A stretch of 5,037 bases of DNA from a virus. The position numbers were made by a program, and so were the translations under genes. The stretch is taken from the IMG/VR virus record IMGVR_UViG_3300045988_008646, positions 1 through 5,037 of that record; one strand, 5' to 3'. Positions 1 through 5,037 of the stretch are shown one piece after another (the stretch's first letter is position 1; the number at the start of each line of letters is the position of its first letter). The notes beneath the pieces are model-generated. The model saw nothing but the letters and a program-made list of their open reading frames with translations, searched no databases and was not told where the DNA came from.

Positions 1-119
1 AGATTCTTCGTTCGCACTTTGGCGTTGTTTCTCCAGATTCTCGCCTCCAGCGTCCGGAATACCTTGGCGGATCTGAAAGCCCCGTTATTATCAATCCTGT
101 GGTGCAAAATTCCGCGACT
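1..119. repeat. Terminal redundancy: 1..119 is identical to 4919..5037. This is the circular-genome wrap-around (assembly overlap), not a biological long terminal repeat. Unit genome length is 4918 nt.
   Basis: Direct base-by-base comparison of the first 119 nt with the last 119 nt gives a perfect match. The VP1 reading frame is continuous across the junction (4918 is a codon start and position 3 is in frame). Confidence 0.95.
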
Positions 120-683
120 GGTTCAACCGGCGCAGAAACGCCGCAAGGCAACCTTGCCGCTTATGGTCTTGTGTCTTCGACTTCCGCGAAACACGGATTT
201 ACAAAATCGTTTGTTGAGCATGGTATCATTATTGGTCTCTTGAACGTCCGCGCTGATCTTACGTATCAGCAGGGTATTCCGCGTATGTTTAGCCGTCGTA
301 CTCGCTTCGATTTCTATTGGCCAGTTCTTGCGCATCTTGGTGAACAGGCTATTCTTAATAAAGAAATTTTTGCACAGGGTACCGCCGTTGATGATGCTGT
401 TTTTGGCTATCAGGAAAGATACGCAGAATATCGTTATTTCCCTAGCATGATTACTGGTAAGCTTCGATCTACGGATCCACAGTCTCTTGATGTTTGGCAT
501 CTCTCCCAGAAGTTTGATAACCTTCCGACGCTCTCTGCTCAGTTTATTCAGGATAATCCGCCTGTATCTAGAATTCTTGCGGTTCGGAATGAGCCTCAGT
601 TTATCATTGATTCGTATATTGAAATGAAATGTGCCCGCCCGATGCCGGTCTACGGTGTTCCTGGTCTTGTTGACCACTTCTAA
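1..683 (+). CDS. VP1: C-terminal part of major capsid protein VP1 (continuation of 3937..5037 across the circular junction). In-frame codons begin at position 3 and the stop TAA is at 681-683.
   Basis: Same frame as the ORF-track entry 99..683. The region 3..98 is open in this frame and duplicates 4921..5016. C-terminal sequence is ...NEPQFIIDSYIEMKCARPMPVYGVPGLVDHF*. Confidence 0.93.
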   Translation, partial: ILRSHFGVVSPDSRLQRPEYLGGSESPVIINPVVQNSATGSTGAETPQGNLAAYGLVSSTSAKHGFTKSFVEHGIIIGLLNVRADLTYQQGIPRMFSRRTRFDFYWPVLAHLGEQAILNKEIFAQGTAVDDAVFGYQERYAEYRYFPSMITGKLRSTDPQSLDVWHLSQKFDNLPTLSAQFIQDNPPVSRILAVRNEPQFIIDSYIEMKCARPMPVYGVPGLVDHF

Positions 684-698
684 GCGAGGTGATCTATT

Positions 699-1601
699 AT
701 GGGTTTTCTCAGTAAGTTCGGTGGTGCTATCCTTGGTGCTGGTAGTAGCTTACTTGGTGGTATCCTATCGAATAAGCAACAGAAAAAACAGTTTGACGCT
801 AATTATCAGTTGGCTCATGATCAGCTCTACGACCAACATCAAATTGAAGTTGCGGATCTGAAAGCCGCTGGTCTTAATCCGATCCTTTCGGTTAATGGTG
901 GTAATACTACTTTTGGTGCTTCTTCTGGCGGTAGCTATGAGAACCTTGGTACTGCTGCTACTTCCGGATATATGGCGGCTCAGCAAGCGAAAAATCTTGA
1001 GATGCAGAATGAGGCTATCAAGGCTACCGTCGAAAAGACACGTGCTGAAGCTAGTAATGTATTACAGGATACTAAGCTCAAGTCCGCTCAGACTTCGCAG
1101 GTACAGGGTGAGACTACTCTTATTCCGCTCCGTGCAGAAAATATCTCTACTCTTACGGCTCAGGCTAAACAACAGACTGAAGTTTTTAAAATGCAGGTGA
1201 AGGTTGCTGATGCGAATATAAGTAAGATTCTTCAAGATATTGAAAATAGCAAGCGTATTACGGATGCTCAGGTATCGGAACTTGGTACTCGTTCGGAAGC
1301 TAATCTTGCTCAAGCTGGTGCGGCTTCTGCGCTTGCCGCAAAGTCTTATGGTGAATTGTCTAGGCTTCAACAGTTGACTCCTTATGAAATTGATAAATTG
1401 GCCGCTGGCACTGCGGAAAATTTGGCTAGTGCGGCTAATCTTGATGCTTCTGCTAAGCGTACTCTTGAAGATTCGTTGCGTATTAAACTTGCGAATGAGC
1501 AGGAACAGTCCGTTCAGGATATCAAAACAGGTCCGGCTCATCGTTTTGGTACGTCTATGGGTGAATTATTGCGCTGGATGCCTTTCAGTGCGTTGAAATG
1601 A
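699..1601 (+). CDS. VP2: Minor capsid / DNA pilot protein VP2 (phiX174 H-like), 300 aa.
   Basis: ATG 699 with GAGGTGA (686-692) 6 nt upstream. It lies immediately downstream of VP1, as in gokushoviruses. Gly-rich N-terminus (FGGAILGAGSSLLGGILS), a conserved-looking LKAAGLNPIL motif, and a long Ala/Gln/Ser/Thr-rich, probably coiled-coil body. Confidence 0.85.
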   Translation: MGFLSKFGGAILGAGSSLLGGILSNKQQKKQFDANYQLAHDQLYDQHQIEVADLKAAGLNPILSVNGGNTTFGASSGGSYENLGTAATSGYMAAQQAKNLEMQNEAIKATVEKTRAEASNVLQDTKLKSAQTSQVQGETTLIPLRAENISTLTAQAKQQTEVFKMQVKVADANISKILQDIENSKRITDAQVSELGTRSEANLAQAGAASALAAKSYGELSRLQQLTPYEIDKLAAGTAENLASAANLDASAKRTLEDSLRIKLANEQEQSVQDIKTGPAHRFGTSMGELLRWMPFSALK

Positions 1602-1615
1602 AAGGAGTGTTTTAT

Positions 1616-1732
1616 ATGAAACGTCGTAAACTGTCTAAGAAAAAGTCTCGTAAGATCTTTACGAAAGGTGCCGTTAACGTTAAAAAACGTAATCTCCGCG
1701 CTCGCCCAATGCGCGGTGGTTTCCGGATTTAA
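1616..1732 (+). CDS. Small highly basic DNA-binding/packaging protein (J-like / gokushovirus ORF8-VP8-like), 38 aa: MKRRKLSKKKSRKIFTKGAVNVKKRNLRARPMRGGFRI.
   Basis: Strong RBS AAAGGAG (1601-1607) 8 nt before ATG 1616. About 40% Arg/Lys. The C-terminal RGGFRI resembles the conserved tail of gokushovirus J-like peptides. The stop is 2 nt before the VP4 ATG. It is below the ORF-track length cutoff. Confidence 0.7.
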   Translation: MKRRKLSKKKSRKIFTKGAVNVKKRNLRARPMRGGFRI

Positions 1733-1734
1733 TT

Positions 1735-2634
1735 ATGGCTTGTTATCATCCGATCGATTGTTGGCGCGTTCCGGACGCCAGCTCGAAATCGGGTTATCGG
1801 ATTGTGTTTGGTTCTTCTGGTTTGCCGCCTGAACGTGGCGCGGAACCTTGTACAATTCCCTGTGGTAAATGTATAGGATGCCGTTTGGCATATTCGAGAC
1901 AATGGGCAGTCCGTTGTGTTCATGAGGCTTCTTTGCATGACCGTAATTGTTTTTTGACTTTGACTTTTGATGATGTGCATCTTCCAGCTTCTGGTTCTGT
2001 GAGTGTACGTGATGTTCAGCTTTTCTTAAAGCGTCTTCGTAAGGCTTTATCTTATCGGAATATCAAAATCCGTTTCTTTGCTTGTGGTGAGTATGGTGAT
2101 AAAAATTTACGTCCTCATTACCATCTTATTTTATTTGGCTATGATTTTTCTGACGATCGTCAGCTTTTACGACAAACGCCTTATGGTCCGCTTTACATAT
2201 CTGATTTTTTGTTTCGTGTTTGGCCTTATGGCTTCCATACTATTGGTAATGTTACTTTTAAAAGCTGTGCTTATGTAGCGCGATACGTGACTAAAAAAGT
2301 ATATGGTAAGGATGCTCCTGCGCATTATCAGGGCCGTACTCCTGAATTTATTACTATGTCTCGTAAGCCTGGTATCGCTCACGATTGGATTGTTAAGTAT
2401 TTTAATGATGTTTATAATTATGATAAAGTTGTTTTGCCTGATGGCATGATTACGCGCCCCCCGGCGTATTATGATGAATATTTGCATTTGACGGATGCAG
2501 AAAAGTATGATATTCTGAAGGCACAGAGAAAGGCGACGGTTAAGCATGAATCGGTCACGCGCCTGCTCCAAAAGGAACAACATCAAGTTGAGGTTGCTAA
2601 AAAGTTGATTCGACCGATTGAAGGAGACCTATAA
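1735..2634 (+). CDS. VP4: Replication initiation protein VP4 (phiX174 gpA-like rolling-circle HUH endonuclease), 299 aa.
   Basis: Rolling-circle replication motif I FLTLTFDD (nt 1951-1974), motif II (HUH) PHYHLILFG with HYH at 2116-2124, and motif III AYVARYVTKK with tyrosines at 2272-2274 and 2284-2286, directly comparable to phiX174 gpA YVAKYVNKK. The N-terminal Cys cluster PCGKCIGCR is typical of gokushovirus VP4. Confidence 0.95.
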   Translation: MACYHPIDCWRVPDASSKSGYRIVFGSSGLPPERGAEPCTIPCGKCIGCRLAYSRQWAVRCVHEASLHDRNCFLTLTFDDVHLPASGSVSVRDVQLFLKRLRKALSYRNIKIRFFACGEYGDKNLRPHYHLILFGYDFSDDRQLLRQTPYGPLYISDFLFRVWPYGFHTIGNVTFKSCAYVARYVTKKVYGKDAPAHYQGRTPEFITMSRKPGIAHDWIVKYFNDVYNYDKVVLPDGMITRPPAYYDEYLHLTDAEKYDILKAQRKATVKHESVTRLLQKEQHQVEVAKKLIRPIEGDL

Positions 2635-2636
2635 CG

Positions 2637-2924
2637 ATGAAAGTTATTTATGCTATTTTTGACCGAAAAACAAACTCTTGTTCACTCTGTAAAGAAGCCG
2701 GAAATATTGAAGAGTTCCAGCGCTGGTTTGCCACTGTATTTCTTCGTGATTCTTCCATGTTTGCGCTTTATCCTCAGGATTATGATATTTATTCTGTTTG
2801 CACTTTTGATGATGAAAATATGACCATCCCGGATTTTCATCCGCCGACGTTGATTTGCTCTGTTGATGAACTTTTCGACATTTTCAAAATTCCGCGCCCG
2901 ACCGTTGCCCAGTCGGGCGAATAG
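2637..2924 (+). CDS. Hypothetical acidic protein, 95 aa. By position (immediately after VP4) it is possibly the VP5-like (phiX174 C-like) protein of gokushoviruses. No diagnostic motif recognised.
   Basis: GAAGGAG (2621-2627) 9 nt upstream of ATG 2637. The start is 2 nt after the VP4 stop. Third-position T bias matches the other genes. It ends in TAG 2922-2924 inside a terminator-like hairpin. Confidence 0.6.
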   Translation: MKVIYAIFDRKTNSCSLCKEAGNIEEFQRWFATVFLRDSSMFALYPQDYDIYSVCTFDDENMTIPDFHPPTLICSVDELFDIFKIPRPTVAQSGE

Positions 2925-2939
2925 GTTTTCTTATTTTTG
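2895..2939 (+). terminator. GC-rich hairpin (stem CGCCCGAC 2895-2902 / GTCGGGCG 2912-2919, 9-nt loop) overlapping the end of the 95-aa ORF, followed by the T-rich tract GGTTTTCTTATTTTT.
   Basis: Perfect 8-bp inverted repeat read directly from the sequence. A U-rich tract follows immediately after the stop codon. Confidence 0.45.
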
Positions 2940-2956
2940 CCGTTTCCTTTGCGGCG

Positions 2957-2990
2957 AGCCGCTAATGTTTGCATACGTTAGCGGCTTTTC
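2957..2990 (+). terminator. Rho-independent terminator-like hairpin: stem AGCCGCTAA (2957-2965) / TTAGCGGCT (2978-2986), 12-nt loop with 3 further possible pairs, then TTTT.
   Basis: Perfect 9-bp inverted repeat, GC-rich at its base, directly followed by TTTTCTCTTCCTTTG. It lies in the intergenic region after the VP4-VP5 block. Confidence 0.5.
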
Positions 2991-3014
2991 TCTTCCTTTG
3001 TTAGCCCTAGGGGT

Positions 3015-3097
3015 ATGGGGGGAAATGCCGCGGTTTACCTGATTTTGTCTGTTTTGTTGTTTAAGTTCTCTTGTGTTTTGCGGCAGGTTCCCCCCAT
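3015..3097. other. Long-range interrupted stem-loop: ATGGGGGGAA (3015-3024) pairs with TTCCCCCCAT (3088-3097) and TGCCGC (3026-3031) with GCGGCA (3080-3085). It encloses a 48-nt T-rich loop.
   Basis: 10-bp perfect plus 6-bp inverted repeat with one bulge (16 bp total). G6 and C6 homopolymer tracts. The palindrome CCCTAGGG (3005-3012) sits adjacent. Confidence 0.5.
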
Positions 3098-3125
3098 TAT
3101 TAGCTTAAGGATGTGATGTTATGTC

Positions 3126-3338
3126 ATGTTTAAAGTTCCTACTGCTTTTAATCGTTTCGTATTTGACGGTGTCGATCGTTGTGAGTATTGTCAATGCGTT
3201 TTGTACCACGTTGACGACTATGTGGCTGTTTGTTTAAATTGTGGTGCATGTTTTACTAGTAGTAATTTTAAACCTACTAGTCTATTTGAAGATACTTGTA
3301 GCGCGGATCCGCGCGGAAAGGAAGATCATGAAATTTAA
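3126..3338 (+). CDS. Small Cys-rich protein (70 aa) with a zinc-ribbon-like arrangement, CxxCxC-(11)-CxxCxxC. Accessory or hypothetical, not one of the core gokushovirus VP1-VP5 genes.
   Basis: RBS TAAGGA (3106-3111) 14 nt upstream. Very strong third-position T bias identical to the core genes. The stop overlaps the VP3 start by 11 nt. Cys at residues 19, 22, 24, 36, 39 and 42. Confidence 0.6.
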   Translation: MFKVPTAFNRFVFDGVDRCEYCQCVLYHVDDYVAVCLNCGACFTSSNFKPTSLFEDTCSADPRGKEDHEI

Positions 3339-3774
3339 TTCTCGTTATTCTGTTACCGGCGAAAAGTCGGGTATTAAGTTTGACCAGCCTTCGCAGACGC
3401 TCCAGTCTTTTAAAGATGATGCCGATATTAACTGTATTATTGCGCGTTTTGAGCATACCGGCGTTTTAGTTGATTCTACGGTTTCGGTTTCTCGCACTCC
3501 TCAATTTGGTGATTATTCTGACATGCCTACCTATCAGGAGGCGCAGAATGTCATTGTGGCGGCTAATAATGCGTTTAGTTCTCTCTCTTCTAAAATTCGC
3601 GAACGATTTGGAAATGATCCTGCCGCCTATTTTGATTTCGTTCAGTCCCTCAAAAAAGGAAGTGATGATTATGCTGAAGCAATTAGGCTTGGAATTATTG
3701 ACAAACCTCTTGACGGTACTCCTGAAGTACCTTCCGGACCTGTTGAAGGTGCCGGTGAAAAAGTAAATTCTTGA
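3328..3774 (+). CDS. VP3: Internal scaffolding protein VP3, 148 aa.
   Basis: ATG 3328 preceded by GGAAAGGAAG (3315-3324). The sequence MKFNSRYSVTGEKSGIKFDQPSQTLQSFKDDADINCIIARFEHTG...PQFGDYSDMPTYQEAQN...IRERFGNDPAAYFDF matches conserved gokushovirus VP3 blocks (PS.T.QSF, DIN.I..RF..TG, FGD, IR.RFGN.P). The ORF-track start at 3241 is a non-AUG upstream extension and is not used here. Confidence 0.9.
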   Translation: MKFNSRYSVTGEKSGIKFDQPSQTLQSFKDDADINCIIARFEHTGVLVDSTVSVSRTPQFGDYSDMPTYQEAQNVIVAANNAFSSLSSKIRERFGNDPAAYFDFVQSLKKGSDDYAEAIRLGIIDKPLDGTPEVPSGPVEGAGEKVNS

Positions 3775-3797
3775 CATTTTGCTAACGGTAAGCGCCG

Positions 3798-3833
3798 TCC
3801 GGCCAATTACACTACTTGATGTAATTGGCCGGA
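3798..3833. promoter_or_regulatory. Strong hairpin in the VP3-VP1 intergenic region: 13-bp perfect stem TCCGGCCAATTAC (3798-3810) / GTAATTGGCCGGA (3821-3833) with the 10-nt loop ACTACTTGAT. The loop/stem junction reads ACTTGAT-GTAAT, resembling the phiX174 origin core ACTTG^ATATTAAT.
   Basis: Inverted repeat read directly from the sequence. Comparison with the phiX174 gpA nick-site sequence from established knowledge. Its function as an origin is an inference. Confidence 0.4.
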
Positions 3834-3838
3834 GTGAC

Positions 3839-3851
3839 ACCGTTAAACGGT
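3839..3851. other. 13-bp palindrome ACCGTTaAACGGT immediately downstream of the hairpin. Possible protein-binding site.
   Basis: Self-complementary around a central A, read from the sequence. Confidence 0.3.
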
Positions 3852-3867
3852 TTACACCTCACACCCA

Positions 3868-3897
3868 TTGAATAATTTGTGAATTATTGTGAATTAT
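3868..3897 (+). promoter_or_regulatory. Putative VP1 promoter region containing a tandem direct repeat TGTGAATTAT x2 (3878-3887, 3888-3897) plus the degenerate copy TTGAATAATT (3868-3877). A possible sigma70-like pair is TTGAAT (3868-3873) -N18- AATTAT (3892-3897).
   Basis: Exact 10-bp tandem duplication seen in the sequence. Hexamers are weak matches to TTGACA/TATAAT. It lies about 40 nt upstream of the VP1 start. Confidence 0.25.
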
Positions 3898-3936
3898 GCA
3901 GCTTGTTGGCGAAGCCTTTGAGAAAGGATTAATAAT

Positions 3937-5037
3937 ATGAAATCGGTCATGAAACATTTATTTTCACAGATTCCGCGAGCTCAGATCTCCCGTTCTGTGT
4001 TTGATAGATCACATGGTTGGAAATCTACATTTGATTCCGGTTACCTTGTGCCGTTCCTCGTGGATGAAGTTTTGCCCGGCGATTCTTATAAAGTGAAATT
4101 TAATTTCCTTGCTCGTCTTTCTACTCCAGTCGTTCCTACGATGGATAATCTGTTTCTCGATACGTTTTATTTTTTTGTTCCGTATCGCTTGCTCTGGAAA
4201 CACTGGGAACAGTTCAACGGTCAGCGGGATTATCCCGGCGCTTCTACGGATTATCTTGTTCCGCAGACTTCTGCTCCGGCTGAAGGTGGTTTTCCTGTCG
4301 GTTCCCTTGAAGATTATTTTGGTCTCCCTACTGGTGTAAAAGGTATTAAGGCTAACGAATTAGCCGCTCGCGCTTATGCTCTTATTTGGAATGAATGGTT
4401 CAGAGACGAAAATCTACAGAATCCTATTAACCTTTCTTCCTTTGAGGAAATTTCAACCGCTTCTGGCTTGGATGATGTTGGTCTCGGTGATGCTGGTTTT
4501 ACCGGATCTCACAAACTCCTTCACCGTGGTAAGCGTCACGATTATTTCACCAGTGCTCTTCCATGGCCGCAGAAAGGCCCCGGCGTTGAGCTTCCACTTA
4601 ATGGTGATGCTCCGATTAAGACACTTGCTAATGGTAAAGTCTTTGATGGTATTGTTTTACCTGGTACTCATTATCAAACTGGTAAGGATCCGACATTACG
4701 GTATTTTAATGATGGTGAGCTGCGTAAACTTGGTATACGCTATGAATCGTTCCAAGATGGTAGTATTGCGAGGTGGTCTGGTGGTTATGATGGTATTGAT
4801 TATGAGACTATCGCCGATCTTTCTTCTGTTACTGCCGCTACGATTAACTCTCTTCGTCAGGCCTTCCAGCTTCAGAAGCTTTATGAACGTGATGCCCGCG
4901 GTGGTACTCGTTATACTGAGATTCTTCGTTCGCACTTTGGCGTTGTTTCTCCAGATTCTCGCCTCCAGCGTCCGGAATACCTTGGCGGATCTGAAAGCCC
5001 CGTTATTATCAATCCTGTGGTGCAAAATTCCGCGACT
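3937..5037 (+). CDS. VP1: Major capsid protein VP1 (phiX174 F-like), N-terminal and central part. The ORF runs off the window end and continues at position 3 (same gene as 1..683). Total length is 554 aa.
   Basis: ATG at 3937 preceded by AAAGGA (3923-3928). No stop before the window end, so it is absent from the ORF track. The translation MKSVMKHLFSQIPRAQISRSVFDRSHGWKSTFDSGYLVPFLVDEVLPGD...TRYTEILRSHFGVVSPDSRLQRPEYLGG matches conserved gokushovirus VP1 N-terminal and C-proximal motifs. T-rich third codon positions. Confidence 0.95.
   Translation, partial: MKSVMKHLFSQIPRAQISRSVFDRSHGWKSTFDSGYLVPFLVDEVLPGDSYKVKFNFLARLSTPVVPTMDNLFLDTFYFFVPYRLLWKHWEQFNGQRDYPGASTDYLVPQTSAPAEGGFPVGSLEDYFGLPTGVKGIKANELAARAYALIWNEWFRDENLQNPINLSSFEEISTASGLDDVGLGDAGFTGSHKLLHRGKRHDYFTSALPWPQKGPGVELPLNGDAPIKTLANGKVFDGIVLPGTHYQTGKDPTLRYFNDGELRKLGIRYESFQDGSIARWSGGYDGIDYETIADLSSVTAATINSLRQAFQLQKLYERDARGGTRYTEILRSHFGVVSPDSRLQRPEYLGGSESPVIINPVVQNSAT

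Follow-up and report, generated by a model that had tools for sequence, protein, structure and literature searches.

The DNA analysed here (the window: the whole stretch of 5,037 nt, positions 1 to 5,037 of IMG/VR record IMGVR_UViG_3300045988_008646) is a complete circular gokushovirus genome. The subject of this study is a hairpin with a short conserved box at its 3' side, located between the genes for the internal scaffolding protein (VP3) and the capsid protein (VP1). A first-pass annotation had proposed this hairpin as a candidate rolling-circle origin presenting the nick site of the replication initiator VP4. An exact direct repeat of 119 nt was found at the ends of the window (1-119 = 4919-5037); the genome is therefore circular, and its unique sequence amounts to 4918 nt and not to the 5037 nt originally given. 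All genes of the window are on the + strand. The VP3 gene (3328-3774, Pfam Chlamy_scaf, 1e-29) lies directly 5' of the hairpin, and the VP1 gene (554 aa, Pfam Phage_F) begins downstream of it at 3937 and continues through the junction to 683, the Pfam assignments being in agreement with the flanking genes named before.

The hairpin was found where it had been placed, at 3798-3833 of the + strand. It consists of a 5' arm (3798-3811, TCCGGCCAATTACA), an 8-nt loop (3812-3819, CTACTTGA) and a 3' arm (3820-3833, TGTAATTGGCCGGA; the consensus among the elements described below is GATGTAACTGTgCC). The arms, of 14 nt each, are 100% complementary. The perfect stem-loop was thus upheld, while its dimensions had to be revised from a 13-bp stem and a 10-nt loop to 14 bp and 8 nt, once the closing A-T pair is counted. 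The loop holds the core CTTG (3815-3818), and the stem is followed on the same strand by the conserved box GTGACACC (3834-3841), in which GACACC occupies 3836-3841. This hairpin is the longest perfect inverted repeat of the genome; in 200 genome shuffles the longest stem reached a maximum of 11 bp and a mean of 7.6 bp. When folded alone as single-stranded DNA (ssDNA), it has an energy of -15.4 kcal/mol, and the minimum-energy ssDNA fold of the whole 162-nt VP3-VP1 intergenic region (z-score of -6.2) includes it. A clade-specific outer helix may additionally be formed on the + strand by 3784-3789 (AACGGT) and 3839-3844 (ACCGTT), the latter overlapping the end of the box. Compensatory variants of it were observed in two groups of three relatives each (AGCGGT/ACCGCT in L002-L004 and TACGGT/ACCGTA in L005-L007), but it is regarded as tentative because it is absent from the minimum-energy fold.

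The proposal of an origin had initially leaned on the 7-mer ACTTGAT, shared with the phiX174 origin and said to occur nowhere else in the genome. The + strand indeed contains a single copy (3814-3820), but a second one is located on the - strand (2582-2588), and 0.88 copies are expected by chance. The 7-mer match to phiX174 is therefore no evidence by itself, and neither the match nor its supposed uniqueness was retained as an argument. The downstream TAAT, also listed as shared, is not conserved as such; what is conserved there, counted from the C of CTTG, are T+5, T+7 and A+9 of a GATGTAA run. The significance of the element stems from the comparative evidence and not from the 7-mer alone.

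Conservation and covariation among gokushoviruses

The alignment of related genomes that had been suggested as a check came out in favour of a conserved element. The hairpin, its loop and the following GTGACACC were kept in all seven GenBank relatives, the nearest genomes available (75-85% genome identity; from human, pig and cat samples), with compensatory changes in the stem, such as CCAG/CTGG replacing CCGG/CCGG in relative L001. The stem-loop and its loop motif were likewise kept in distant gokushoviruses. Among 25 close relatives, the hairpin was 97% identical, its central 18 nt being fixed by the way in which these relatives were gathered, and the box was 100% identical, compared with 65-86% for the flanks, coding sequence included. 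The exact 18-mer around the loop was present in 34 IMG/VR contigs, 27 of them microvirus-sized. In contigs with VP4 proteins only 35-45% identical, the stem sequence was unrelated, and the loop and the downstream TGACACC were kept.

A sample of 80 gokushovirus contigs (53-84% identity), picked by VP1 homology alone, was searched for hairpins of at least 7 bp that have CT[TAC]G[AT]T in the loop, together with GA[CT]A between +19 and +28. This pattern was found on the coding strand in 65 of the 80 and in none of them on the other strand. The coding strand is the packaged strand, that is, the one which Rep must nick. A covariance model (R1) was constructed from 18 ungapped seed elements of other gokushoviruses, with the window excluded, followed by model-based alignment. 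Exactly one + strand match was obtained in 67/80 contigs at E<0.01, and in 74/80 at E<1. The window itself scored 50.2 bits (E=1.3e-11) with this model, the match extending over 3792-3844 of the + strand. Apparent duplicate copies within contigs were due to the terminal redundancy of circular contigs. The element is single-copy and conserved across the family (67/80), as a rolling-circle double-strand origin requires.

The stem was analysed for covariation in 66 distinct elements, and compensatory changes were found in 12 of 12 pairs. In the model-based alignment, 88% of cells were paired, versus 25-41% when the partners were slid. RNAalifold applied to a plain MAFFT alignment of 55 elements returned no structure; in that alignment the 5' arms were out of register, and 60% were paired. 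The eight central stem pairs showed Watson-Crick replacements only, with no G-T or G-U intermediates, as expected of a DNA helix and not of an RNA helix.

Fifty-eight distinct elements were aligned without gaps on the C of CTTG, the search having required the C, T and G of this core. At positions that were free to vary, T+2 was present in 54, A+4 in 44, T+5 in 55 and T+7 in 54 of the 58 elements. The conserved run extends from -3 to +26 and reads c-t-a-C-T-T-G-A-T-G-T-a-A ... A(+18)-c-T-G-A-C-A-C-C; the information content climbs at -3 and collapses past +26. Within the box, GACA begins at +21 in 34 of these elements and at +22 in a further 15, regardless of stem or loop length. The anatomy of the element hence comprises a covarying stem, the loop yTaCTTG(A/T)TGT and a GACACC box 21-22 nt past the C of CTTG, and the sequence of the 3' arm is moderately conserved on top of its pairing. 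Rolling-circle origins are known to combine a nick site, often exposed by a hairpin, with a bind site (PMC5714925, PMC5703833), and by this analogy the GACACC box is a candidate VP4 binding site. In 23 of 52 distinct elements (those of L052, L063, L066, L068, L076, L079, L081, L102 and L111 among them), where 2.2 were expected by chance, the same box doubles as the 5' arm of another small hairpin that directly follows the first, e.g., GACACC-AAAA-GGTGTC; some of these pairings have changed in a compensatory way, as in GACATC/GATGTC. The window offers only a 5-bp version of it, ACCGT/ACGGT (3839-3852). Many genomes (L062, L082, L120, L123 and L125 among them) also contain a short G+C-rich hairpin after an A-run, between the VP3 stop codon and the conserved hairpin; it resembles an intrinsic terminator on the complementary strand and might act as primer RNA or as a minus-strand signal. 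No such additional upstream hairpin is present in the window.

The element was intergenic and directly 3' of VP3 in 67 of 67 loci, irrespective of gene order. With the element denoted ori, the order VP1-VP2-VP3-ori-VP4-VP5 was found in 43 loci and VP1-VP2-VP4-VP5-VP3-ori, the order of the window, in 21; the gene sets of the remaining three were incomplete, and VP3 was still followed by ori. VP3 and the element are always adjacent across both orders, as if they had been moved together as a single module. In every genome the element comes right after a stop codon and closes a gene block, a position that would suit a signal acting at the RNA level, i.e., a terminator or mRNA-stabilising hairpin that ends the VP3 transcript, or a regulator of VP1 or VP4 expression; as RNA, too, the intergenic region is well folded (z = -4.4). 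We consider such a role very unlikely. The stem is followed by GTGACACCG and not by a T-run, the terminator scan of 3600-4000 was empty, the features of an intrinsic (rho-independent) terminator were lacking with nothing relevant in the terminator and promoter scan, and no Rfam family was matched. Terminators need neither an invariant loop nor a box at a fixed distance, and the missing G-U intermediates in the central pairs speak against an RNA helix. Moreover, the next gene is VP1 or VP4 depending on the gene order, which argues against a gene-specific translational operator.

The element was also identified in the classical phages by reading their sequences directly. In Chp2 (2904-2941), the 5' arm CTAGCGTATAACAG, the loop TCTACTTGAT and the 3' arm CTGTTATACGCTAG are followed by GTGATAGC; in SpV4 (512-544), the corresponding parts are TGGGGCATAT, ATTACTTGTTATA and ATATGCCCCA, then TTGACGAC; and in Chp1 (2750-2777) they are GGGCTATAT, CCTCTTGGCT and ATATAGCCC, then GAGCGACACA. 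The loop of the phiMH2K hairpin (about 3297-3334) contains CTACTTGTTGTAA. No origin is annotated at this site in the GenBank records of Chp1, Chp2, SpV4, phiMH2K and the seven metagenomic genomes; the Chp1 record annotates four other hairpins (h1-h4), not this one.

Relation to the phiX174 origin and the VP4 initiator

The origin of phiX174, CAACTTG^ATATTAATAACACTATAGACCAC, is located at 4299-4328 (rep_origin annotated at 4306; cleavage site CAACTTG^ATA). It spans the same -3 to +26 as the gokushovirus conserved block, with CTTG^AT at an equal offset, and its GACCAC starts at +21, as does the GAC box of gokushoviruses. The likeness that had been noticed in the core of the loop therefore extends further, since the whole 30-nt block (3812-3841 of the window, + strand) is collinear with the phiX174 origin, including the GAC box at +21. 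When both sequences were read directly, 17 of the 30 positions were identical between the window and phiX174. A homologous Rep, a core located on the packaged strand and a single copy per genome are further traits shared by gokushoviruses with phiX174 and the Bullavirinae.

The two origins differ in their architecture. The phiX174 origin is embedded in gene A, lacks an inverted repeat and contains an A+T-rich spacer, whereas the gokushovirus element is an intergenic hairpin after VP3, in which the 3' arm (3820-3833) takes the place of the spacer, the 5' arm is located upstream and the predicted cut site falls in the loop. The phiX174 origin was not detected by the covariance model. The strict phiX174-type (Bullavirinae) origin is defined by CAACTTGATATTAATAACACTATAGACCAC, an A+T-rich spacer and a location inside the Rep gene. 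The element departs from this type, being identical at 17 of 30 positions, with a G+C-containing hairpin arm as its spacer, an intergenic location and no site in VP4. A conserved ACTTGATA-like site inside VP4, the finding that had been named as contrary to the proposal, was absent: no CTTGA was found on the + strand of the window VP4 gene, and such a 7-mer occurred within VP4 in only 9 of 78 relatives, at scattered codons. Judged from the sequences, the element is collinear with and probably homologous to the phiX174 origin, yet no member of the strict phiX174 type; it looks like a phiX174 origin with its spacer turned into the 3' arm of a hairpin and the complement added upstream.

The presumed partner of the element is VP4, an HUH rolling-circle replication initiator (1735-2634, + strand; phrog_942, 7e-117; Pfam REP_ORF2-G2P). 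Its HUH motif RPHYHLI aligns with RLHFHAV of the phiX174 gpA protein, and its two-tyrosine motif YVARYVTKK aligns with YVAKYVNKK. Both tyrosines, as well as the HYH and YVARY motifs, were invariant in nine gokushovirus VP4 proteins. The replicon accordingly encodes its own HUH initiator with catalytic tyrosines, and the predicted nick-site core CTTGAT (3815-3820) is on the displaced, packaged strand. Conservation of sequence, structure and box points to recognition by a protein, which could also be a viral protein other than an initiator acting at a nick site. The element would then be a packaging or condensation signal, bound by VP5 or a J/VP8-like protein, or a Rep operator lacking a nick site. 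Genes for DNA-binding proteins are present in the window (VP5, phrog_1670, and a basic open reading frame (ORF) at 1598-1732), and the frequent second hairpin with the box as its 5' arm is maybe a separate protein site. We find this explanation unlikely, as it leaves the coincidence of the core and the span with those of the phiX174 origin unexplained. The phage phiX174 couples its packaging to strand synthesis from the origin and needs no separate signal for it; an origin role would therefore be supplemented, not replaced, by a role in packaging.

Origins of other known systems resemble the element in part. The core CTTGATA, reportedly identified as the nick site of pC194 by Gros and colleagues in 1987, is located upstream of rep with an adjacent inverted repeat (TTCTTATCTTGATAATAAGGGTAACTA...TAGTTACCCTT). 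The core is thus shared, but in pC194 it lies 5' of the hairpin and is without a GACACC box, whereas the gokushovirus core is in the loop. The Rep of the pC194/pUB110 family (Rep_1 HUH) has one Tyr plus a Glu (PMC5703833). CRESS-DNA viruses (with circular genomes of single-stranded DNA that encode a Rep), pT181 and pMV158 have hairpin-loop origins with the same working mode, although their Rep proteins belong to other families. The gokushovirus loop CTACTTGA contains neither the TAGTATT^AC-type nonanucleotide nor the NANTATT^AC-like form typical of CRESS-DNA origins, and its bind element is one box at a fixed distance, not iterons as in that group. Conserved hairpins between genes have also been described in reekeekee- and roodoodooviruses, where the loops are identical and the stems have changed in a compensatory way (PMC9865509). 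These represent other clades of Microviridae and are likened here by description; their function was left open, with a minus-strand origin discussed, and they were connected neither with the phiX174 cleavage motif nor with a box downstream (PMC9865509).

The role considered there by Olo Ndela et al. for conserved hairpins of very small microviruses (PMC9865509) has to be weighed for the present element as well. A complementary-strand (single-strand) origin would be recognised as a hairpin on the incoming + strand by host primase, RNA polymerase or PriA, which would prime the minus strand, and it would resemble the primosome assembly hairpin of phiX174 or the plasmid single-strand origin (sso) elements. 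A strong, strand-specific and non-coding hairpin in an ssDNA genome is compatible with such a function. Three observations make it quite unlikely. First, one loop and one box are found across phages of Chlamydia, Spiroplasma, Bdellovibrio, E. coli and diverse gut and marine bacteria, which is unexpected of a host signal, whereas such constancy is expected of a site for the conserved viral VP4. Second, the core is the cleavage core of the homologous phiX174 and pC194 Reps, a trait of plus-strand origins. Third, the more elaborately structured region at 2925-3125 (z = -8.1) could fill that role. The host-specific motif and long imperfect hairpin that characterise ssoA-type origins and the phiX174 primosome assembly site (e.g., the CS-6 loop TAGCGT) were not found in the element, the loop being without such a motif.

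We therefore regard the hairpin together with its 3' box as the likely viral-strand (double-strand) rolling-circle origin of this genome, with a VP4 nick predicted from sequence comparison between G3818 and A3819. By analogy with characterised origins we infer that the repeat extrudes as a cruciform, that the box is bound by VP4 and that VP4 cleaves exactly at G3818^A3819, in the following order. The 14-bp inverted repeat of the supercoiled replicative form would extrude as a cruciform, or would breathe, exposing the loop in single-stranded form. VP4, placed by the GACACC box 21 nt downstream, would cut the + strand between G3818 and A3819, and one tyrosine of the YVARY motif would join the 5' phosphate. 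The 3'-OH would be extended round the circle by a host polymerase. The second tyrosine would then act on the regenerated origin, its hairpin refolded on the displaced strand; with this cut and the ligation of the old strand, a circular + strand would be released and enter further replication or packaging.

Several observations weigh against this interpretation. No model match was obtained in 6 of the 80 contigs, at least two of which are incomplete. These contigs are not phylogenetically independent, and the covariation counts, taken from an alignment fitted to the model, lean towards structure. A minority of elements have CTAG or CTCG as their core, which alters the base two positions before the proposed cut. 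The identity of 17/30 with the phiX174 origin is modestly above chance once CTTGAT is fixed, and, the phiX174 origin being inside gene A and not a hairpin, the analogy needs a changed architecture. Finally, in the classical phages the covariance model gave weak or no detection, and the box is degenerate (GTGATAGC in Chp2, GCGACACA in Chp1 and TCACAG in phiMH2K).

Prophages, CRISPR spacers and genome context

The element is also present in integrated genomes. It was found in a prophage of the E. coli C5 chromosome (L128 3377-7663, beside hipA) and in six other E. coli genomes. The E. coli gokushovirus prophages have the gene order of the window, with the element between a VP3-like gene and the capsid gene, and nothing is annotated at it in RefSeq. 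Some gokushoviruses integrate at dif and most are without dif motifs (bioRxiv 10.1101/743518), and a palindromic non-coding element could in principle be a dif-like site recombined by XerC/XerD for lysogeny, as in the enterobacterial gokushoviruses. This reading was rejected and is barely credible. In the C5 prophage, the element is internal (L128 4993-5044, VP3-like gene to capsid gene), whereas the prophage ends between VP2 and Rep, next to hipA. The 14-bp arms and 8-nt loop differ from the 28-bp dif layout of 11-6-11, and nearly all gokushoviruses have the element whereas most have no dif motif. Complete gokushovirus gene sets with the element were additionally observed in large bacterial contigs beyond the E. 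coli group, namely in Phascolarctobacterium faecium DSM 14760 (L238), a Desulfovibrionaceae metagenome-assembled genome (MAG; L274), Intestinirhabdus alba (L255/L269, two copies 3.7 kb apart) and four further contigs (L239, L240, L250 and L257). They probably represent prophages integrated in the genomes of Negativicutes, Enterobacterales and other lineages.

At least 120 IMG/VR contigs were matched when databases were scanned with CTTGATGTAAC-N9-TGACACC as the ori pattern. In bacterial assemblies, about 29 hairpin-bearing sites were found, mostly beside microvirus genes. About 17 of 46 bacterial-assembly matches were without a hairpin or phage genes, a number equal to the chance expectation, and were discarded. 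Two hairpin-less matches turned out to be CRISPR spacers, located in Natronospirillum operosum G-116 (L252 3535-3568) and Marinomonas arctica 328 (L253). Their match to gokushovirus origins covers the nick core, the 3' arm and the box (TACTTGATGTAACTGGTCT..GTGACACC), and the two arrays are of different types, with 32-nt and 28-nt repeats. Being CRISPR spacers, these half sites were dismissed as integration junctions or phiX174-like linear origins. By sequence match, the spacers link Natronospirillum operosum and Marinomonas arctica as hosts to gokushoviruses; since the origin itself had served as the scan pattern, the finding gives no ground for an acquisition hot spot. A different arrangement was observed in a Pseudomonadota MAG (L271 2790-2836 and 4408-4454, JBCCKS010000015), in which two direct repeats of ~90 nt, each with the origin hairpin (one intact, one degenerate), lie on either side of 1.6 kb that holds two ORFs of unknown function. 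This segment, in which no microvirus gene was detected, may be the remnant of a prophage or a satellite bounded by ori copies.

The remainder of the window is organised as follows. VP1 is followed by the gene for the pilot protein VP2 (699-1601). Between VP2 and VP4 lies a 44-aa, strongly basic ORF (1598-1732, phrog_10695) that begins MKRRKLSKKKSRK and probably encodes a J/VP8-like DNA-condensing protein. VP5 (2637-2924) is located downstream of VP4. A Cys-rich ORF of 70 aa (3126-3338) overlaps the start of VP3; it contains a CxxC...CxxC arrangement with weak zinc-finger-like Pfam hints, matched no PHROG family and has a counterpart in OP549870 annotated as hypothetical. The second non-coding region, 2925-3125, between VP5 and this ORF, has the very strong ssDNA structure mentioned above. 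It includes a 12-bp hairpin at ~2957-2986 followed by TTTTCTCTT, as well as a long-range helix of G-rich and C-rich segments, and is a candidate terminator and/or complementary-strand origin. Just 5' of VP1, the 10-mer TTGTGAATTA is tandemly duplicated (3877-3896). Relatives have one copy (TTTGTGAAT...), inside a conserved TTCAC/GTGAA-rich stretch, and the duplication may be part of the VP1 promoter or represent more Rep or regulator sites.

Significance of the element

Literature on gokushoviruses searched for hairpin, stem-loop or origin yielded no description of the element, although the original phage papers of 1987-2002 may mention it. Rolling-circle origins as such are already known; what would be new is a probable origin of the phiX174/pC194 cleavage type placed in a hairpin loop, with a box at a fixed distance, and kept across a whole subfamily. 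A broader proposal can be formulated, which is possible but doubtful in our view. It holds that the element is the undescribed origin of the whole Gokushovirinae, position-by-position homologous to the 30-nt phiX174 origin; that the hairpin form is ancestral in Microviridae and the hairpin-less gene A origin of phiX174 derived; and that the element, as the most conserved non-coding sequence, is used by other players. The last part was included because CRISPR spacers of two system types target the element. Under the same proposal, ori-flanked DNA without phage genes in a MAG could mean that VP4-type Reps mobilise satellite DNA.

Few ssDNA phages are as abundant in gut, marine and soil viromes as gokushoviruses. 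A defined element of 52 nt with a predicted nick position would make direct origin testing possible in this group, and the E. coli gokushovirus prophages offer a tractable system for it. For genome annotation, the element may serve as a natural zero coordinate and as a marker of strand and completeness, the covariance model finding one copy per genome. As a highly conserved target of CRISPR spacers it may assist host assignment, and it could be used as the cis element of gokushovirus-based vectors. In terms of evolution, it would join the phiX174 origin, the pC194-type plasmid origins and the hairpin-loop origins in one series.

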